Shown: positions 25,232 to 33,141, counted from the stretch's first letter. The stretch is 64,000 bases of DNA from Candidatus Saccharibacteria bacterium UBA1944 (GCA_002336935.1 DDEW01000002.1:8910-72909), one strand, 5' to 3'. The notes: generated by a model not told the origin, from the sequence alone. A program made the numbers and translations.

Positions 25232-28200
25232 ATGACGTTCTTATTGTTTATCGCAGTAGTCGTGCTCGCCATAGTGCTTGGCACTCAGAGCAGCAATGCA
25301 AAGAAAAAAGTAGACTATTATAGTATGTCGTATCGGCAAGGCTACTGGGATGGGGTGCGCGCAAGTGAGCAAAAACAAGTATCGTCGAACGACGCATTGC
25401 AGCAGCCAGCACCTGAGCAGGCGGTAGTAACAGATGAACTTCCTCAAACCGCTAATACAGTAGAGTATACCGATGTCCCACTTGTGCAAGATGCTGATGG
25501 CTATATGACGGCACTTGAACAGACGACCCCTGCAGCGAGCTACGCTGCGCAGCCAGTTCTTTCACATGAATCAGCAGAAGAGCGTCACGAGCGTAACCGT
25601 AGTCATACAGTGAATATCGCACTGTATGTTGCCAGCCTTTTGCTGGTTTCGGGTATTATACTACTAGCTCAAACGATTGGACTTCCGAGTGAAGTCAAAT
25701 TTGCTATTGTGTGGCTGCTCGTACTTACCTTTTATATTGCTGGGTTTGTGATTCACGCACATGTGCCAATCCTTAAGCCTGCTGCCGTTGCCTTCATTGG
25801 TACCGCACTCGCAGCAGTGCCAGTGGCAGGCATCACTATGTATTACCTCATCACGCGTGACGCTGCACTATGTTGGCTTGTGACCTCACTCATTGCTACG
25901 GGCATGTACGTGTACGCCACGGTAACAATGAAAAGCCAGCTACTCGCGTACGTTTCCATTCTCTCCCTCTTCATTTTTTCGTGTACACTCCCCGCCGTCG
26001 CTCATGCGCAAATTATGTGGTACTACGTCGTCATGATTCTCTTCGGATCGCTCCTAACGATGTTGGCCCACTATAGGTATGCATGGATCCCTGCCACCTT
26101 TGCCGCGCCGGTGACCCAGGCGAGCCCTGTTGCAGTGCCACTAGCACTCATTGGTTCGGTATTTTCCTTTGCATTTATGACACCCTGGGAATACGCTGCG
26201 GTGTTTGGCGCAGCAATGGTGTACTATGCGGCCCAGGCGATGGTGTCGGTAATCTCATCGTTGCGAGCGACCTACTGGATCGTGGCGCGTTGCTTGTTCA
26301 TGGTAGTGGTTGTTATGGTGGCGGCAGCGCTTACCGACAAGTCGTGGGTTATGATGAGCTATGCCTTAGCCGCTGCAGGTGCGGTGAATATGGCTGTTTC
26401 GACCAGCCTGCTTCAACCACATCAACGTATGGGTGGTGTGCAGCACGAGGTCATGTTTTGGGTAGGCTACGCAGCCGCACTTGTTGCTTCGGTTATGGTG
26501 GCCAATGTTAGTGAACCAGGTAATGCCTTTATTATGGCGGTAGAGCACGTCGCGATTGTCGTGGCTGCGCTGTATGCATTATTGCGACTTCGTCGAGCAG
26601 AGTTTGGTTGGCCGGTTTTGCTGAGCATGACGGTACTGCCGCTTGTTGCTGGGTATCACCTCGCCAGCCCACCAGTCGAGACAAAATGGATGTTTGTATT
26701 GTTCATGGCGTATAGCCTAGCGGCGCTCGGACTACGCTGGGTAAGGCCGGGCAGGGCGCTTGAAGCATCCCTGCTCTACACATTTGTGGGACTGTGGTTC
26801 ATGATTACGGGCACGATGACCTTTACGCTTGGTACCATTTGGGCGATTGCGTGGTGGCTTGCAGTGGCGATTGTTAGCTACTTTGTCGTATGGCGTGAGC
26901 GCGTGGACGGCATGATGATACTTGGGAATAATGCGCTGCTGGTAGCGCTTGCGGTGGCCGGTAGCTATTATAAATGGACTGATGATACAACCGTTACAGT
27001 TATCGCTTGGGTGAACGCTGCTGGTTCCTTGACACTGACTGAGTATTTGCGAACGAAAGGCGAGCGGGGCATGCTACTGGCGACTATTGTGCAAATGAGC
27101 ACTGTTGCAGCTGCGGGTGTACTTGGCGCATTGACGCTCCTGTTGATTGGTGATGAGGCGATGCGAGCGGCTACATGGATGACGCTTGTGGGCGCACTGT
27201 ATTATACGGCATGGCGACAGCGCAGCACTACTGCATTGGTATTTGCAAATATCGCCGTCGTCGTCGAACTGCTTCTCATTGCCGCAATGCTCCACCTATC
27301 ATGGCTTGCAACCATGGCGTTGGTTGTTTGGCTTCCATTAGTTGGATTTGTTGGTGTGGCTGAGTTTATGCGATCTTCAAACTACCGTTCTTCACTGATC
27401 CAGACTATGTGGTCCTCTGGGGTTGCAAGCGCCTTGCTTTTTGGACTGCTCGCACTACTCGCAGGTATTGGCTCTCATGAGCATGATGCAATGTGGCGTA
27501 CGGTTGCGTGGTTCGGTGCGGTGAGCGCCCTGTATTATTCGGCGTATCGTGCGGTGAGTGTATCGCTGCTCTACGCGGCGAACGTGAGCATTGTGATACT
27601 AGTTGGTTTACTTGGCAATTGGGCCGGTCTTTCGGCCTACCAGATTAGCGCGTGTATGGCGTGGTTTGGGCTCGTTGGTTTTTATGGTGCCGCGTGGTTC
27701 TACAAGCAGAACCGAGGCGGGGGAAGAGTATGGTCTGCTTTCTATCTTTCGGCTATTGCAACAACCGTGATTACTGGATTGTTTGCCTTGCTATCGGACA
27801 GCACTACCGATGTGCTTGCCGCTGGGACCGCACTGCTCGGTATTGGGGCAATACTCGCCAAGGATGGCTTTGAAAGTCAGCGACTATGGATGGTCGATAG
27901 CGGTGCCATTATTGCAATGATTGGCTTCCAGCGAATGATTGGCAGCTATTTTCCCGATGCTCACAGCTTGCTCTATACACACCTTTGGGCATTTTTGGCC
28001 TTTGCAATCGCATATCTTTACCGCACGCGTGGACAGCGTGGACAAGCACGCGGCAGGTTAGTTGTCGGTTTAGCCGCCTTAAGTTTTCCGACACTCGGTA
28101 CGGCGCTTTCCGAAGGTGGCGGGGCGCAGGTACTCTTCTTAGTTGAGCATGTTTTGCTAGTTATTGCTGGACTGGTATACGCTTACCGGGTGGCTACTTG

Positions 28201-28357
28201 GTGGGGCGCAGCGGGGGTAACGATGGCAGTTCTGTATATGCTCAAAGGCTACACCTCGCTCCTCACCATTGCGATTGGTCTTGTCGTGATTGGGGCAGTT
28301 GTCTACGTGATTATTCACGCCGACAAGAAGAACCGCCCACAGCCGCCTACTGTATAA
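25232..28357 (+). CDS. Very large polytopic membrane protein (DUF2157/DUF2339-like)
   Basis: 1041 aa; after a polar N-terminal linker it is almost entirely hydrophobic helices with internal repeats. Confidence 0.6.
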   Translation: MTFLLFIAVVVLAIVLGTQSSNAKKKVDYYSMSYRQGYWDGVRASEQKQVSSNDALQQPAPEQAVVTDELPQTANTVEYTDVPLVQDADGYMTALEQTTPAASYAAQPVLSHESAEERHERNRSHTVNIALYVASLLLVSGIILLAQTIGLPSEVKFAIVWLLVLTFYIAGFVIHAHVPILKPAAVAFIGTALAAVPVAGITMYYLITRDAALCWLVTSLIATGMYVYATVTMKSQLLAYVSILSLFIFSCTLPAVAHAQIMWYYVVMILFGSLLTMLAHYRYAWIPATFAAPVTQASPVAVPLALIGSVFSFAFMTPWEYAAVFGAAMVYYAAQAMVSVISSLRATYWIVARCLFMVVVVMVAAALTDKSWVMMSYALAAAGAVNMAVSTSLLQPHQRMGGVQHEVMFWVGYAAALVASVMVANVSEPGNAFIMAVEHVAIVVAALYALLRLRRAEFGWPVLLSMTVLPLVAGYHLASPPVETKWMFVLFMAYSLAALGLRWVRPGRALEASLLYTFVGLWFMITGTMTFTLGTIWAIAWWLAVAIVSYFVVWRERVDGMMILGNNALLVALAVAGSYYKWTDDTTVTVIAWVNAAGSLTLTEYLRTKGERGMLLATIVQMSTVAAAGVLGALTLLLIGDEAMRAATWMTLVGALYYTAWRQRSTTALVFANIAVVVELLLIAAMLHLSWLATMALVVWLPLVGFVGVAEFMRSSNYRSSLIQTMWSSGVASALLFGLLALLAGIGSHEHDAMWRTVAWFGAVSALYYSAYRAVSVSLLYAANVSIVILVGLLGNWAGLSAYQISACMAWFGLVGFYGAAWFYKQNRGGGRVWSAFYLSAIATTVITGLFALLSDSTTDVLAAGTALLGIGAILAKDGFESQRLWMVDSGAIIAMIGFQRMIGSYFPDAHSLLYTHLWAFLAFAIAYLYRTRGQRGQARGRLVVGLAALSFPTLGTALSEGGGAQVLFLVEHVLLVIAGLVYAYRVATWWGAAGVTMAVLYMLKGYTSLLTIAIGLVVIGAVVYVIIHADKKNRPQPPTV

Positions 28358-28400
28358 CTATATTGACTTTCTATCCAGTTTATGCTAATATTAAGCTGGT

Positions 28401-29720
28401 ATGACTGCCAAAATAAACACTGCTTCTGAATCGCTCATCACCTTGCGTCCTGATATTATTGGCGCGATGGTGCCGCGTAATGCTAAAGAGCAACGCGAAT
28501 TATTCTTGGCAGGTGCGGTCCGTAACCCACGTCACAGCTACGACAAACTTGCATACGACTACGCCGCACCGATGAAAACAATCCTCGAGACGGGCGAGCA
28601 GGTCACCGAGGAAATCGGTCCCGAGTCGAAGCACCGTGCTATTTATGATGAAACTGTCGAAACCTACATCGACACGAACGAGCTAATGTACTTTATGAAT
28701 GAGTACAATCAGACAGCCGACTCTGCAAAGAAGCAGCAATACCGTGACGAGATTATGAAGTTGAACGTCGAGTTGCACGGCGCGCCTGTAGAGCGCGAGT
28801 ACCATCATGTACTGGCGAGTTTTTTGGACAAGATTGACACCAAAAGTCTTACGGGTAGAGCACTTGCTATTTATCAAGAGCTGCTCGGTGCAATGCCAAT
28901 TGCCGATACGCTTGAAGACCCGGGCGGCTACGAGCCTAAGCCTGAAACGATGGCGTGGATGCAGCAGATGGTAGAATCGCTCTATGGCGGTATGTTGGCA
29001 CACGTTGAGGATGGTCGCATTTATACTGCCGAGCAGCTTCGCCATGTATTCGAACAGGTAATTCGCAGTGAGTTCGAGGAGGTTGCCGTCGATTGGCAGG
29101 TGGTGATTGAACCTGCAAAGTCAATCGTAGTGAAAGCTCGGGATAAAAAAATCGTGATTCCTGAAGACCGAGCCGACGTAACGAGCGAACAAGCAAAAGA
29201 CTTGGTAGTGCATGAAATTGGAGTACATATGCTTCGTGCTATATATGGCTACGATTCCGATGTTGCGCCGCTGGCTGTTGGGCTGACCGGTGCGGGCGAC
29301 TCCGAAGAAGGTTTGGCGATGGCAACTCAGCAAGCACGGACGGGTGCCTATGTGGAGGCTGGCCACGGTCTTTACTTGGTAGCGAGTCTGGCCTACTTTG
29401 AGCAAACTGATTTCCGCGATACCTTTGAACTCGTGTGGCGCATCGGTGCCTTAGCCGGTAGCAAAGACGGCACGCTTTCCGAGGAACAAATTGAGAAGGC
29501 GCGTAGCACTGCTTACAATCAGTGTATGCGCATATTTCGTGGTACTGATGACATTCCGTGGTTCAAGGACTTGCAGTACTACAACGGCACCGCGAATGTA
29601 TGGAAGCAGCTAGATGCCATCTGTGGTGATGACTTTCAATACCAGCTGATGTTGATGGGAAAAATCGACGTGACGAACCCTGTACATCGGCGTACCGTTC
29701 TTGAGTCGCATTCTTCATAA
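28401..29720 (+). CDS. DUF1704/MATCAP-like zinc metallocarboxypeptidase
   Basis: HEIGVH (HExxxH) followed by SEEGLA, and late R.FRG and KDL.YYNG motifs. TTGACT-17 nt-TAATAT promoter. Confidence 0.75.
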   Translation: MTAKINTASESLITLRPDIIGAMVPRNAKEQRELFLAGAVRNPRHSYDKLAYDYAAPMKTILETGEQVTEEIGPESKHRAIYDETVETYIDTNELMYFMNEYNQTADSAKKQQYRDEIMKLNVELHGAPVEREYHHVLASFLDKIDTKSLTGRALAIYQELLGAMPIADTLEDPGGYEPKPETMAWMQQMVESLYGGMLAHVEDGRIYTAEQLRHVFEQVIRSEFEEVAVDWQVVIEPAKSIVVKARDKKIVIPEDRADVTSEQAKDLVVHEIGVHMLRAIYGYDSDVAPLAVGLTGAGDSEEGLAMATQQARTGAYVEAGHGLYLVASLAYFEQTDFRDTFELVWRIGALAGSKDGTLSEEQIEKARSTAYNQCMRIFRGTDDIPWFKDLQYYNGTANVWKQLDAICGDDFQYQLMLMGKIDVTNPVHRRTVLESHSS

Positions 29721-29738
29721 ACCGTGTATACTATGGGC

Positions 29739-30245
29739 ATGAAACTGCGCTTTGCCACACCCAACGATATACCAACATTGTTTGCGATGTCCTGCCGGAT
29801 TCATCGTTTGGAGCCCTATACGTCATTGATACCCGCCCATGAACGTGAGCGGTTTTTGCGTGCCTACGCGCCTGGCTCAAAACTCGAAAAAAAGTTCACC
29901 GATAAACTAGCAAGGTTCATCGCAACACCCGAGCATTGGGTGTATATTGCGGAAGTCGACGGCGAGATTGCCGGCTATCGACTGGCCGAGCGACAAGGCA
30001 CCGATATTTATATGCACGGCCTGTTCGTAGACCCTGATTACCAGGGCAGAGGAATCGGCCGAGCGCTCTTTACCGAGCCACTATTGGCAGCAAAAGTGGG
30101 CGACACCATTCACTTGACGGTACTGAAAGGTAACGATCGGGCTCGTCAATTGTACGAGAGTGAAGGCTTTGTTGTAGTGAACGAAAACCCCAAAACATTC
30201 TACGGTGCCATGCAGGAAGACATGGTAAAAACCATTCCGGTTTAG
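29739..30245 (+). CDS. GNAT-family N-acetyltransferase
   Basis: LFVDPDYQGRGIGRAL acetyl-CoA motif and V..GNDRARQLYESEGF. TATACT lies 6 nt upstream of ATG 29739. Confidence 0.88.
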   Translation: MKLRFATPNDIPTLFAMSCRIHRLEPYTSLIPAHERERFLRAYAPGSKLEKKFTDKLARFIATPEHWVYIAEVDGEIAGYRLAERQGTDIYMHGLFVDPDYQGRGIGRALFTEPLLAAKVGDTIHLTVLKGNDRARQLYESEGFVVVNENPKTFYGAMQEDMVKTIPV

Positions 30246-30246
30246 A

Positions 30247-30275
30247 TTGACAAAAATATATAAAACTGATAAAAT
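30247..30275 (+). promoter_or_regulatory. sigma70 promoter of the ATP-grasp/protease/rimK operon
   Basis: TTGACA-17 nt-TAAAAT. Confidence 0.7.
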
Positions 30276-30312
30276 ATGGACTAATAACACGTAGCCCAGA
30301 AAAACACACGCA

Positions 30313-31287
30313 ATGGCAGGATTTATGGTAACAGCACGTATGATCATGAGCGAGCTTGAAGCTCGTGATATTGTCGTTGATGCCGCTATGCCCGAGCGAG
30401 TGTCGGTATTGTCCTTTGAATACAACGGGAAACCTCGACTGATTATCGGCTGCACACCGGATTTTTCATCGGCACTTACTATCCCTGTCTGTCGGAGCAA
30501 AATGATGACCCAGTGGCTCCTGTCGCGAACTACCAGTGTGCCACTCCCCGCGACGCTGGTTTATACTACCGACGCTGAGGCAGAGGCCTTTTTGCACCGG
30601 TATGGTGTGTTGGTAGTAAAACCGCAAGACGGTGCTCATGGCAACGGAGTGACGGTGGGCGTAGACACTATGGACAAGCTGTTACCGGCTGTTGCGCTTG
30701 CACGGCAATACAGTGCTACGGGTAGGGTGCTGTTGCAGCAAATGGTGAGTGGCCGTGATGTTCGGGTACTAGTGGTTGACGGTGCGGTTGTAGCGGCGAC
30801 ATACCGGATACCTGCCTCAGTGGTGGGGGACGGCACCAGCACGATTCGCCAATTGATTGATACAGAGAACCAAACCAATCCCGATAGGGGCGAAAAGCCG
30901 TACGACAAGCGTATGAATCGTATTGATGTTGCAGCGGCCACTCGCTTTTTGGGCGAGGCAATGGAGGTCGTTCCGGCAGGTGGCGAGAAAGTCACGGTGG
31001 TTGGTACAGCCAACATTGGTACGGGTGGCGAATCGCACGAATGCCTAGACGAATTGCCCGAGGTGCTGACGCGTCACGCCCTTGACGCCGCTACGGCTGC
31101 TCGAAGCTTTATTTGCGGGGTCGACTTCGTGTATGATTCGACCACAGGAGCATACTATTTGATTGAGCTTAATAGCTCGCCAAGTTTTGGGCTCCACGCT
31201 TTTCCGTCTGTAGGCAAGCCAACTGATATTGCGCCGCTTTATGTGACGGCGCTGTTGAAGCGGTATGATAGTGAGGGGGATAAATAA
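30313..31287 (+). CDS. Stand-alone ATP-grasp ligase of the cyanophycin-synthetase/GshAB type
   Basis: VVKP.DG.HGNGV, QQMV.GRDVRVLVV, PA.VVGDG.STI..LI...N insertion, ANIGTGG, GVDF, IELNSSP. Confidence 0.8.
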   Translation: MAGFMVTARMIMSELEARDIVVDAAMPERVSVLSFEYNGKPRLIIGCTPDFSSALTIPVCRSKMMTQWLLSRTTSVPLPATLVYTTDAEAEAFLHRYGVLVVKPQDGAHGNGVTVGVDTMDKLLPAVALARQYSATGRVLLQQMVSGRDVRVLVVDGAVVAATYRIPASVVGDGTSTIRQLIDTENQTNPDRGEKPYDKRMNRIDVAAATRFLGEAMEVVPAGGEKVTVVGTANIGTGGESHECLDELPEVLTRHALDAATAARSFICGVDFVYDSTTGAYYLIELNSSPSFGLHAFPSVGKPTDIAPLYVTALLKRYDSEGDK

Positions 31288-31718
31288 TGAGCGCATCTGT
31301 GATTGGTTGTATTGAAACGGTAAGTTTTCCTGAGCTGAACGTGTTTGATGTGCAGGCGAAAGTTGATACCGGTGCCTATTCAGGTGCCCTGCACTGCACC
31401 GATATTAAGGTGGTGAGACGAGGGGTATTGCGCACGCGCGTGCTGAAGTTTTCGCCACTCGGTGGCACGCCCCAAGATACTACCGAGTTTATGAGCACTT
31501 ACATTCGCTCGGCAACTGGTCATAGGGCCCGTCGGCACGTTGTGGATACACAAATAATCGTGAATGGTAAAAGTTACCCTATACGCATTGGGTTATCGGA
31601 TCGGTCCGATATGAAACGCCCGGTATTGCTCGGAAGACGCTTCCTAAGAGAAAACGACATACTGGTCGATGTGCGAATTAACGAAGAACTTGATGATGAA
31701 GGAGAAAACACGAGATGA
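31287..31718 (+). CDS. RimK-associated retropepsin-like protease (RimB/PF05618-like)
   Basis: AKVDTGAYSGALH, IRSATG...R, LSDRSDMKRPVLLGRRFL. Translationally coupled on both sides (TAATG and ATGA overlaps). Confidence 0.82.
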   Translation: MSASVIGCIETVSFPELNVFDVQAKVDTGAYSGALHCTDIKVVRRGVLRTRVLKFSPLGGTPQDTTEFMSTYIRSATGHRARRHVVDTQIIVNGKSYPIRIGLSDRSDMKRPVLLGRRFLRENDILVDVRINEELDDEGENTR

Positions 31719-32626
31719 AAATAGCGATTCTCAGTAACGGAAATGGTAATTATTCTACCAAGCGGCTCAAAGAGGTTGCGATTGCTCGTGGGCACGAAGT
31801 AAAGGTCATCAAATATCGTGAGTGTTATGCGAGTATTGAACGCAATAACCCAACGGTGAGCTACCGCGGGGAAGATCTTGCAACGTTTGACGCGGTGATT
31901 CCGCGTATTGCGAGCTATATGACGAAGTATGGTACAGCAATTGTCCGTCAGTTGGAAATGCAGGGTGTATACACAATTTCGAGTTCTATTGCGATCACGC
32001 GTAGCCGCGACAAGCTGCGCAGTATGCAGCTGCTTGCTAAGGCTGGGGTGGGTATTCCAAAAACCGTGTTTAGCCGTAATTCAACCGACATTGATGATTT
32101 GATTGAAAAGTTAGGCGGTACCCCGGTGATTATCAAGCTTGCGCGTGGTACGCATGGCAATGGCGTCGTGTTGGCTGAGAGCAAAAAGGCCGCCAAAAGC
32201 GTACTACAGGCATTTTATTTGACTAATGACGATGGCACTAACGTGCTGTTGCAGGAATTTGTGAAAGAAAGTGCCGGTACGGACATTCGTGCGTTTGTCG
32301 TTGGCGGTCGTGTTGTAGCCAGTATGAAACGTCAAAGTCTCGACGACGACTTTAGAAGCAACCTCCACAAAGGCGGCGAAGGGGTCACAATTAAGCTAAC
32401 AGAAGAAGAACGAAAAATGGCCATTAAAGCCGCTCGCGCAATGGGGCTTAATATCGCCGGTGTTGATATGATGCGTAGTGACCGTGGCCCACTTATTTTG
32501 GAAGTAAACGCCAGCCCTGGGTTTGGCATTGAAAAGGTGACTGGCCGTGATGTTGCAACGCCAATTATTGAGTATCTTGAGCAAAATGCAAAACGCGGTC
32601 ACAAAAAAGACAAAGTTGGCGCATAG
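31715..32626 (+). CDS. rimK: RimK alpha-L-glutamate ligase
   Basis: MKIAILS...YST.RL, DAVIPRI, RSRDKLRSMQLLA..G, DIRAFVVG, DDFRSNLHKGG, GVDMMRS, EVNASPG. Confidence 0.93.
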   Translation: MKIAILSNGNGNYSTKRLKEVAIARGHEVKVIKYRECYASIERNNPTVSYRGEDLATFDAVIPRIASYMTKYGTAIVRQLEMQGVYTISSSIAITRSRDKLRSMQLLAKAGVGIPKTVFSRNSTDIDDLIEKLGGTPVIIKLARGTHGNGVVLAESKKAAKSVLQAFYLTNDDGTNVLLQEFVKESAGTDIRAFVVGGRVVASMKRQSLDDDFRSNLHKGGEGVTIKLTEEERKMAIKAARAMGLNIAGVDMMRSDRGPLILEVNASPGFGIEKVTGRDVATPIIEYLEQNAKRGHKKDKVGA

Positions 32627-32658: not shown

Positions 32659-33141
32659 ATGACCTTCTTGATTGTTCTCGCGCTCTATGTGGGTATACTT
32701 TTCGTCATTGGCTATGCAAGTCGACGGAGTATGGGAGTACCATCGCTTGCGCTCGCGGCGGGGGCAATTCTTGCTAAGCTATGGACCGATAGCTTGACAC
32801 CGCTCGTAGCGAGCACCGGTGTCATTATTGTGCGGCCACCACTAAGCAGTTTGGTGGCGGTAGCACTGACACTTATTCCGGCACTAATTGTGATGATTCG
32901 TGCCAATAAAGTAGCAGCGCATCACCACAGTATATTTGGGAGCATTATATTTGCGGTACTTGCTGCCATGTTGACTTACGGCGCATTTGCTAATGCAGTG
33001 GTACTCGATGAGTCAAGCAAGCAATATGTTATGCAACTTCTTGCCTACGACAAAATTATTATAACCGCGGCAATTACATTAGCGATTGGTGACGTGTTGT
33101 TCTACAAAAAACCCTATCAACACGACAAACATAGAAAATAG
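32659..33141 (+). CDS. Hypothetical membrane protein
   Basis: 160 aa with about five TM helices; TATACT 6 nt upstream. Confidence 0.6.
   Translation: MTFLIVLALYVGILFVIGYASRRSMGVPSLALAAGAILAKLWTDSLTPLVASTGVIIVRPPLSSLVAVALTLIPALIVMIRANKVAAHHHSIFGSIIFAVLAAMLTYGAFANAVVLDESSKQYVMQLLAYDKIIITAAITLAIGDVLFYKKPYQHDKHRK

Follow-up and report, generated by a model that had tools for sequence, protein, structure and literature searches.

To our knowledge, reversible lengthening of the C-terminus of a protein has been characterised in bacteria for one system only, RimK acting together with RimB. In this study, we analysed a 64,000-nucleotide stretch of DNA from Candidatus Saccharibacteria bacterium UBA1944 (GCA_002336935.1 DDEW01000002.1:8910-72909; hereafter the window), in which a rimK gene and a rimB-like gene stand in a cluster of five with genes for a MATCAP/DUF1704 metallopeptidase, a GNAT acetyltransferase and a stand-alone ATP-grasp protein (Table 1). 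The genome that carries the window measures 0.95 Mb and is 97.7% complete, and the nearest protein relatives of the window are all annotated as Candidatus Saccharibacteria. Two described systems frame the comparison. RimB has a catalytic DTG motif, cleaves polyglutamate tails and stimulates RimK (PMC11957791), while the peptidases TMCP1 and TMCP2 of the MATCAP family, which carry HExxxH and EEG motifs, take Tyr and Glu off C-termini and trim alpha-linked polyglutamate chains (PMC10499314). We favour, with moderate confidence, the interpretation that the cluster is a RimBK module acting on the tail of ribosomal protein S6 that has been enlarged by an exo-carboxypeptidase and by another ligase acting on C-termini. 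The RimBK core is already known; the additions are the MATCAP-type carboxypeptidase, the CphA-G-like ligase and the GNAT, and we found no description of this combination in the searchable literature, nor was an assay of any bacterial DUF1704 protein apparent in the literature searched.

The first gene of the cluster encodes a relative of MATCAP with an intact MATCAP-type zinc site, for which carboxypeptidase activity is predicted. Its product matches PF08014 at 61.5 bits (cut-off 27), with a match that spans profile positions 110-323 only. A homologue search of 1.8 billion representative proteins returned 979 matches at E<=0.001, and 41 diverse homologues were aligned. Invariant across these are H271, E272, H276, R279, E303, R377, Y393 and G396, among them the HExxxH zinc motif, which reads HEIGVH (H271-E272-H276), and the third ligand, E303, which lies in EEG. 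A single-sequence phmmer search against the PDB gave nothing relevant and the 41-sequence profile was needed; this profile matches the structure of human MATCAP (7z5g) with an E-value of 4e-8 and aligns the motifs of gene 1 with HEIGTH and EEGLA, in addition to an N-terminal PxN...F...NP..Y motif. An AlphaFold2 model of the protein (predicted local distance difference test score 95.5) was also compared with the PDB by Foldseek, where the top match was human apo MATCAP (7z5g_A; probability 1.00, E-value 1.5e-3, with moderate TM-scores of 0.44/0.56) and the runner-up an M32 metallocarboxypeptidase. Assignment of gene 1 to the proteobacterial QEGLA equivalog TIGR02421 was rejected (51.4 bits against 338.65), and we place the protein in a different subfamily.

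By homology, gene 5 is a canonical RimK, that is, a glutamate ligase for which S6 is a plausible acceptor. It exceeds the cut-off of the RimK equivalog NF007764 (348.9 bits against 331), has the domains PF18030 (Rimk_N) and PF08443 (RimK), and matches the RimK proteins of Pseudomonas (7qyr) and E. coli at 333 and 306 bits, respectively. Homology likewise identifies gene 4 as a retropepsin with a DTG motif, of a type able to cleave polyglutamate tails: it matches PF05618 at 67.5 bits (cut-off 27), reaches 58.3 bits on the NCBIfam RimB equivalog NF052261 (cut-off 200) and carries a VDTGA motif at residues 26-30, as read in the translation. Signal peptides are absent from all five proteins, and the chemistry would therefore be cytoplasmic; for gene 4, whose N-terminus reads MSASVIGCIETVSF, the absence of a hydrophobic signal was judged by reading the sequence. 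On the same contig, about 3.4 kb beyond the end of the window, a 267-amino-acid frame gives a weak RimK-like ATP-grasp match (PF08443, 25 bits; G000:C12:76283-76819).

The pairing of the DUF1704 peptidase with RimBK extends well beyond this genome. Our sample of the class comprises 201 genomes, and its co-occurrence statistics are confounded by shared ancestry. RimK is found in 131 of these genomes, the RimB-like family PF05618 in 101 (100 of them RimK+), the CphA G-domain-like (CphG-like) ligase in 21 and PF08014 in at least 42, the last figure being a lower bound because the PF08014 model scores these proteins weakly. RimK is present in 38 of the 42 genomes with DUF1704 (odds ratio 6.7, kinship ignored). 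DUF1704 lies no more than 6 kb from rimK in 26 of the 42, and on the same contig in 32. We fetched 93 DUF1704 loci, all from Saccharibacteria, and found RimB and/or RimK in 72 of them, in six or more gene orders. Among these are DnaJ, DUF1704, ATP-grasp_3, an ATP-grasp~RimB fusion and RimK (21 loci); DnaJ, a membrane protein, DUF1704, RimB and RimK (about 17 loci, including a tight, minimal run of DUF1704, RimB and RimK, as in L053); the type seen in the window, in which the GNAT precedes or follows DUF1704; forms that have an ATP-grasp of the L-amino-acid-ligase type; and RimB, RimK and then DUF1704. Pfam confirmed that the extra genes encode ATP-grasp ligases, of at least four subfamilies; across the fetched loci, ATP-grasp subfamilies were labelled by non-iterated, domain-level hidden Markov model searches. 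The identical five-gene cluster occurs in relatives at 61% and 51% identity, and in a relative at 41% identity the GNAT is absent and DUF1704 directly overlaps the ligase gene. The initial annotation of this DNA had counted a lack of linkage between DUF1704 and rimK in relatives among the grounds for refuting its proposal; the linkage proved to be strong, across several gene orders and several DUF1704 lineages.

Shared descent could explain part of this pattern. The flanking genes for DnaJ, ComEC and YebC are syntenic across the class, and some of the linkage can therefore be explained by simple inheritance. Within the genus of the window, however, DUF1704 copies that are 25-52% identical to that of the window, and that fall in separate deep clades of the DUF1704 tree, adjoin RimK copies that are 76-95% identical (L033, L034/L035/L037, L038, L039 and L041). 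Inherited synteny by itself thus does not account for the pairing, which has been rebuilt or retained repeatedly. The partner ligases differ across the genus as well, in the slot between dnaJ and rimB, a pattern suggestive of cassettes being exchanged at a hot spot. Locus type follows the DUF1704 clade, with 17 label changes against 48 when labels were shuffled, a test that shows only clustering because kin share labels. Fusions of an ATP-grasp with the RimB-like domain are common in the class: about 27 of the 101 PF05618 domains lie in open reading frames of 440-770 amino acids just 5' of a canonical rimK, some of them in genomes without DUF1704.

A few observations on individual loci may be recorded here. 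In many cases the RimB-like domain and a second ATP-grasp ligase form one protein, in either domain order (L034:6140-7648, L039:7305-8672 and L226:9344-10762, all on the minus strand). In L037, a close relative, the DUF1704 match (G001:C9:43993-45395) is interrupted by TGA and TAA and split into pieces, and is probably a decaying copy. A clade that is not linked to rimK (L105-L123, for example L122, from TM7 oral taxon 351) has DUF1704 proteins 27-28% identical to that of the window, and in L105 a weak R2K-clade ATP-grasp lies downstream of DUF1704.

The association of MATCAP peptidases with ligases recurs in other Patescibacteria, in some cases within one polypeptide. PF08014 was found in 74 of 401 Patescibacteria genomes, about 22 of them with the match in a long open frame of roughly 790-860 amino acids. 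Pfam resolves these long frames as fusions of ATPgrasp_ST (PF14397, RloC-like) to a full-length MATCAP domain (proteins of roughly 790-890 amino acids, for example at L208:6822-9218 on the plus strand and L212:8207-10726 on the minus strand, and in L209-L218 generally), and the fusion gene lies directly 3' of a gene for a membrane protein with PKD and 7TM_transglut domains (RloB-like). Among 20 loci examined outside the class, 11 hold fusions, 17 have at least one ATP-grasp gene, and some have arrays of four ligases or an ATPgrasp_ST~RimB-like fusion adjoining DUF1704. For 9 of 10 fusion loci, the last two residues of the adjacent 7TM protein are -EE, whereas those of the non-fusion types are not. 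Taken together, the fusions, the operon linkage and the -EE ends support the idea that MATCAP peptidases work with RimK-superfamily ligases on acidic C-termini in this phylum. One Patescibacterial family, with DUF1704 in 18 of 19 genomes, has a gene for a short 7TM protein followed by four ATP-grasp ligase genes, converging on a gene for a 384-amino-acid DUF1704 protein next to mreB (L221:1708-9270, L224:2432-9383). At L219:9104-10942 (plus strand), a 612-amino-acid protein resembling N-formylglutamate amidohydrolase (PF05013) is encoded between DUF1704 and two more ATP-grasp ligases, and may be another hydrolase of such systems.

As for what the enzymes of the cluster might act on, the genome offers a candidate of its own. 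Its rpsF gene (G000:C13:236-589, minus strand) encodes an S6 protein that ends ...ASEETEEDSEE, the canonical acceptor end for RimK; S6 of E. coli likewise ends -DSEE. Proteins ending in -EE make up 8 of about 1024 crude open reading frames in the genome, and of these eight S6 alone has a long acidic tail. The two membrane proteins that flank the cluster have no C-terminal Glu. The association of RimK with such an end is only partial in the class as a whole: an S6 ending in -EE was seen in 14 of 40 RimK+ genomes versus 3 of 40 RimK- genomes (Fisher 0.005, kinship ignored).

From its similarities, we infer that gene 3 encodes a second C-terminal amino-acid ligase, with the type of reaction carried out by CphA G domains, GshAB and Ngg. 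In the PDB its product matches residues 170-474 of CphA1 (7wac), which is the whole ATP-grasp G domain, with an E-value of 1e-30, and GshAB comes next. It scores 178.8 bits (cut-off 850) on the cyanophycin synthetase model TIGR02068, over positions 162-472 of 862, and 157.8 bits (cut-off 569) on the Ngg model TIGR03103, over positions 243-527. Cyanophycin synthetase itself was rejected as an identity, since gene 3 has the G domain only and lacks the N and M (Mur-ligase-like) domains, with a score far under the cut-off. Genes 2 and 3 were also considered jointly as Ngg and rejected, given the sub-threshold score of the ligase and the lack of any match of the GNAT to TIGR03103 at E<=0.01. The GNAT, whose start codon is uncertain (GTG at 29724, ATG at 29733 or ATG at 29739), shows a QGRGIG acetyl-CoA motif in its translation. 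Its best named relatives are RimI (50.9 bits, under the cut-off of 86.4) and YpeA; it is the best RimI-like match in the genome, albeit below the cut-off, and a second, similar match lies elsewhere in the genome.

In our model, RimK would add alpha-linked glutamates to the -EE end of S6, and the RimB-like retropepsin would cut these glutamate tails endoproteolytically and bind or stimulate RimK; both steps are well supported by homology. The DUF1704 protein, as a zinc carboxypeptidase, would strip C-terminal residues singly from the acidic tail, or from free poly-alpha-glutamate made by RimK, and removal residue by residue would make it a graded eraser beside the endo-acting RimB. The CphA-G-like ATP-grasp may serve as a second ligase that adds another residue, or that elongates or caps the tail. 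The GNAT may be an occasional extra; candidate targets for it are a small primer or the N-terminal end of a ribosomal protein, for instance S18. Of the write/erase tailing system that the initial annotation had proposed, the linkage, the intact catalytic motifs of the peptidase, RimB and RimK, and the -EE end of S6 hold up; its chemistry and substrate, and what the second ATP-grasp and the GNAT do, stay inferential.

The layout of the cluster agrees with what had been proposed in most respects. The five consecutive, co-oriented genes are plus-strand open reading frames with exactly the boundaries first given, and their family identities were confirmed by Pfam, NCBIfam and PDB searches. Translational coupling of the last three genes, also anticipated, is borne out by overlaps between genes 3 and 4 (TAATG) and between genes 4 and 5 (ATGA, 4 nucleotides), with a GGAG-like stretch 5' of each; genes 1 and 2 are separated by a gap of 3 nucleotides. 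Each of the first two genes had been credited with a promoter-like site of its own, and such a site does precede gene 1, but the second precedes gene 3 rather than gene 2. With sites before genes 1 and 3, the layout looks like two sub-operons, DUF1704 with the GNAT and the ATP-grasp with RimB and RimK. Promoter-like sites in the region are not above chance (8 observed versus 7.2 in shuffles). Between rimK and the following gene, which encodes a multi-pass membrane protein, no terminator-like site was found, and the two are possibly co-transcribed. That membrane protein is encoded 3' of rimK in most loci of its family and is confined to one family; it was rejected as a member of the system because it is family-specific and also occurs in RimK-negative genomes.

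Table 1. Coordinates of the genes and promoter candidates of the cluster and its flanks, counted from the first nucleotide of the window.
Feature	Coordinates	Strand	Length (amino acids)	Family or remark
Gene 1, MATCAP/DUF1704 zinc metallopeptidase, predicted carboxypeptidase	28401..29720	+	439	PF08014
Gene 2, GNAT acetyltransferase	29724..30245	+	173	PF00583/PF13508/PF13673
Gene 3, stand-alone ATP-grasp, CphA G-domain-like, predicted C-terminal amino-acid ligase	30313..31287	+	324	TIGR02068
Gene 4, RimB-like retropepsin-type aspartic peptidase	31287..31718	+	143	PF05618
Gene 5, RimK, ribosomal protein S6--L-glutamate ligase	31715..32626	+	303	NF007764
Multi-pass membrane protein	32659..33141	+	160	32 nucleotides past rimK; no match in Pfam
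Membrane protein, other flank of the cluster	25232-28357		1041	weak DUF2157 match
Sigma-70-like promoter candidate 5' of gene 1	28363..28391	+		TTGACT-17-TAATAT, TG; consensus match only
Sigma-70-like promoter candidate 5' of gene 3, best of the region	30247..30275	+		TTGACA-17-TAAAAT, TG, 11/12

Several observations weigh against reading the cluster as an extended S6-tail module. DUF1704 is dispensable for RimBK, since 93 of the 131 RimK+ genomes have no detectable copy (29% have one); with only 38 of them carrying it, DUF1704 supplements a widespread RimB-RimK core as an optional extra, not as an obligatory partner, and the GNAT is rarer still. At about 20 loci, mostly from the oral/animal TM7 clade, DUF1704 lies far from rimK among unrelated neighbours. 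The promoter-like site in front of gene 3 hints that the cluster is transcribed as two units. The DUF1704 clades track the type of second ligase and diverge strongly beside a conserved RimK, a hint that the specificity of the peptidase may follow the variable second ligase, not the polyglutamate of RimK. Finally, S6 ends in Lys in many RimK+ Saccharibacteria (...EEK, ...DEK, ...KEK; rpsF loci L164-L203) and is therefore not the obvious acceptor everywhere; in genomes with such an S6, either the end must be trimmed before RimK can act or the substrate of RimK is a different one. The absence of a terminal Glu from S6 in so many RimK+ genomes also speaks for a cycle of free peptides, the principal rival reading, which we regard as possible, though doubtful. 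Here, RimK and the second ATP-grasp would build free poly-alpha-glutamate or short acidic peptides, the GNAT might N-acetylate them, and RimB and DUF1704 would degrade them, the product being an osmolyte or a store of glutamate or nitrogen for an amino-acid-auxotrophic epibiont. The mammalian N-acetylaspartylglutamate cycle, with a GNAT, a RimK-like ligase (RIMKLA/B) and a metallocarboxypeptidase, is a formal parallel, and N-acetylglutaminylglutamine amide is made by Ngg, on whose ATP-grasp part gene 3 gives 158 bits. In keeping with such a cycle, the GNAT, present in only 13 of the fetched DUF1704 loci, co-occurs almost exclusively with the CphG-like ligase (11 of the 13). Yet the GNAT lacks specific similarity to the GNAT domain of Ngg, most DUF1704-RimBK loci have neither a GNAT nor a CphG-like ligase, and S6 of this very genome has the canonical -EE acceptor end. 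The conserved -EE of the membrane protein in the fusion-type systems, moreover, points to protein tails.

Lys-ended S6 proteins could also mean that DUF1704 acts before RimK, removing a non-Glu end (such as the Lys of ...EEK) and thereby exposing -EE for extension, as detyrosination exposes the -GEE of tubulin. Many RimK+ Saccharibacteria do have an S6 ending in ...EEK, ...DEK or ...KEA, and enzymes of the MATCAP family take a single non-acidic residue off an acidic tail. We nonetheless give this order of events very little credence: the S6 of this genome already ends in -EE, and among RimK+ genomes the ratio of S6 proteins with E to those with non-E ends is 10:6 with an adjacent DUF1704 versus 12:7 without DUF1704, that is, no association. 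It is improbable, too, that the cluster consists of two unrelated units that share the slot between dnaJ and comEC, with DUF1704 (and the GNAT) as a peptide-salvage carboxypeptidase and only the ATP-grasp, RimB and RimK forming a system. The syntenic DnaJ, ComEC and YebC flanks, which imply that some linkage is inherited, would suit this view, as would the strong promoter-like site between genes 2 and 3, the DUF1704 clade that sits elsewhere in the genome, and the occurrence of the CphG-like ligase beside RimBK without DUF1704 in 12 of 21 genomes. Against it, deeply divergent DUF1704 lineages hold the same position adjacent to RimB and RimK in one genus; gene order varies, with DUF1704 on either side of the ligases or in their midst; few RimK-negative genomes have DUF1704 (4 of 70); it overlaps the ligase gene in relatives at 41% identity; and ATP-grasp~MATCAP fusions occur in other Patescibacteria.

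A bolder version of the extended S6-tail module, which we consider rather unlikely, would have Saccharibacteria run an S6 tail code, in which RimK polyglutamylates S6, a swappable second ATP-grasp ligase caps or diversifies the tail with another residue, a co-varying MATCAP peptidase takes that residue off and RimB resets the tail. The second ligase would then act in the manner of TTL and the MATCAP-type peptidase in the manner of a detyrosinase. If such a code holds, the ligase~MATCAP fusions of Patescibacteria would show that a bacterial module of this kind is the ancestor of the eukaryotic tubulin code's writer/eraser pair.

Several described systems come close to the cluster. Like CphA1, gene 3 has the G domain, whose reaction joins an amino acid to an alpha-carboxylate at a C-terminus; the order of genes 2 and 3, GNAT then ATP-grasp, resembles the domain order of Ngg, but the GNAT is not Ngg-like. 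The RloA-RloB-RloC operon of Pseudomonas aeruginosa (PMC11957051) also combines a RimK-superfamily ATP-grasp with one or more polyglutamate-accepting peptidases, and in other Patescibacteria the relatives of RloABC carry a MATCAP domain joined to the RloC-like ligase, beside an RloB-like 7TM protein. Membership of the present cluster in that group was rejected. It is built on RimBK, not RloBC, and its peptidases lack the signal peptide that RloA has. No match to the RloB-type family PF14402 was found in this genome (control genomes were negative too, though the model detected the family in other loci), and the genome has no true ATPgrasp_ST ligase, PF14397 only cross-matching RimK.

The closest bacterial counterpart is the RimK-RimB pair of Pseudomonas (RimABK; PMC4741518, PMC7343187, PMC11957791), with which the cluster shares a canonical RimK, a coupled upstream DTG retropepsin, an S6 ending in -EE and cytoplasmic proteins; the ATP-grasp~RimB fusions in relatives of the window, in turn, resemble published RimBK hybrids. 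Unlike RimABK, the cluster has no RimA and has an additional MATCAP-type peptidase, CphA-G-like ATP-grasp and GNAT, its RimB-like protein scores far under the equivalog cut-off, and its host is an epibiont with a genome of about 0.95 Mb. It is worthy of note that organisms with genomes of less than 1 Mb, which make almost nothing for themselves, retain as many as four such enzymes at a single locus. The cluster bears on graded add-and-trim cycles on bacterial protein tails, on the role of bacterial DUF1704 proteins and on the origin of the eukaryotic pairing of ligase and carboxypeptidase. On the eukaryotic side, the MATCAP/TMCP enzymes have only recently come to light as erasers in the tubulin tail code, and a peptidase of their family is here repeatedly recruited to, and elsewhere fused with, ligases of the RimK superfamily. 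The cluster resembles MATCAP1/TMCP1 and TMCP2 with TTL/TTLL (PMC10499314; 7z5g) in its Pfam family, its HExxxH and EEG site, its fold and its ATP-grasp partners, which act, or here are predicted to act, on -EE or polyglutamate C-termini. It differs from the tubulin tail cycle in the low identity (about 14%, with TM-scores of 0.44-0.56), in its ligases, which are of the RimK and CphA-G types, not TTL/TTLL, in an activity that is predicted from the genes, and in its target, which, with no tubulin, is likely to be S6 or free peptides.

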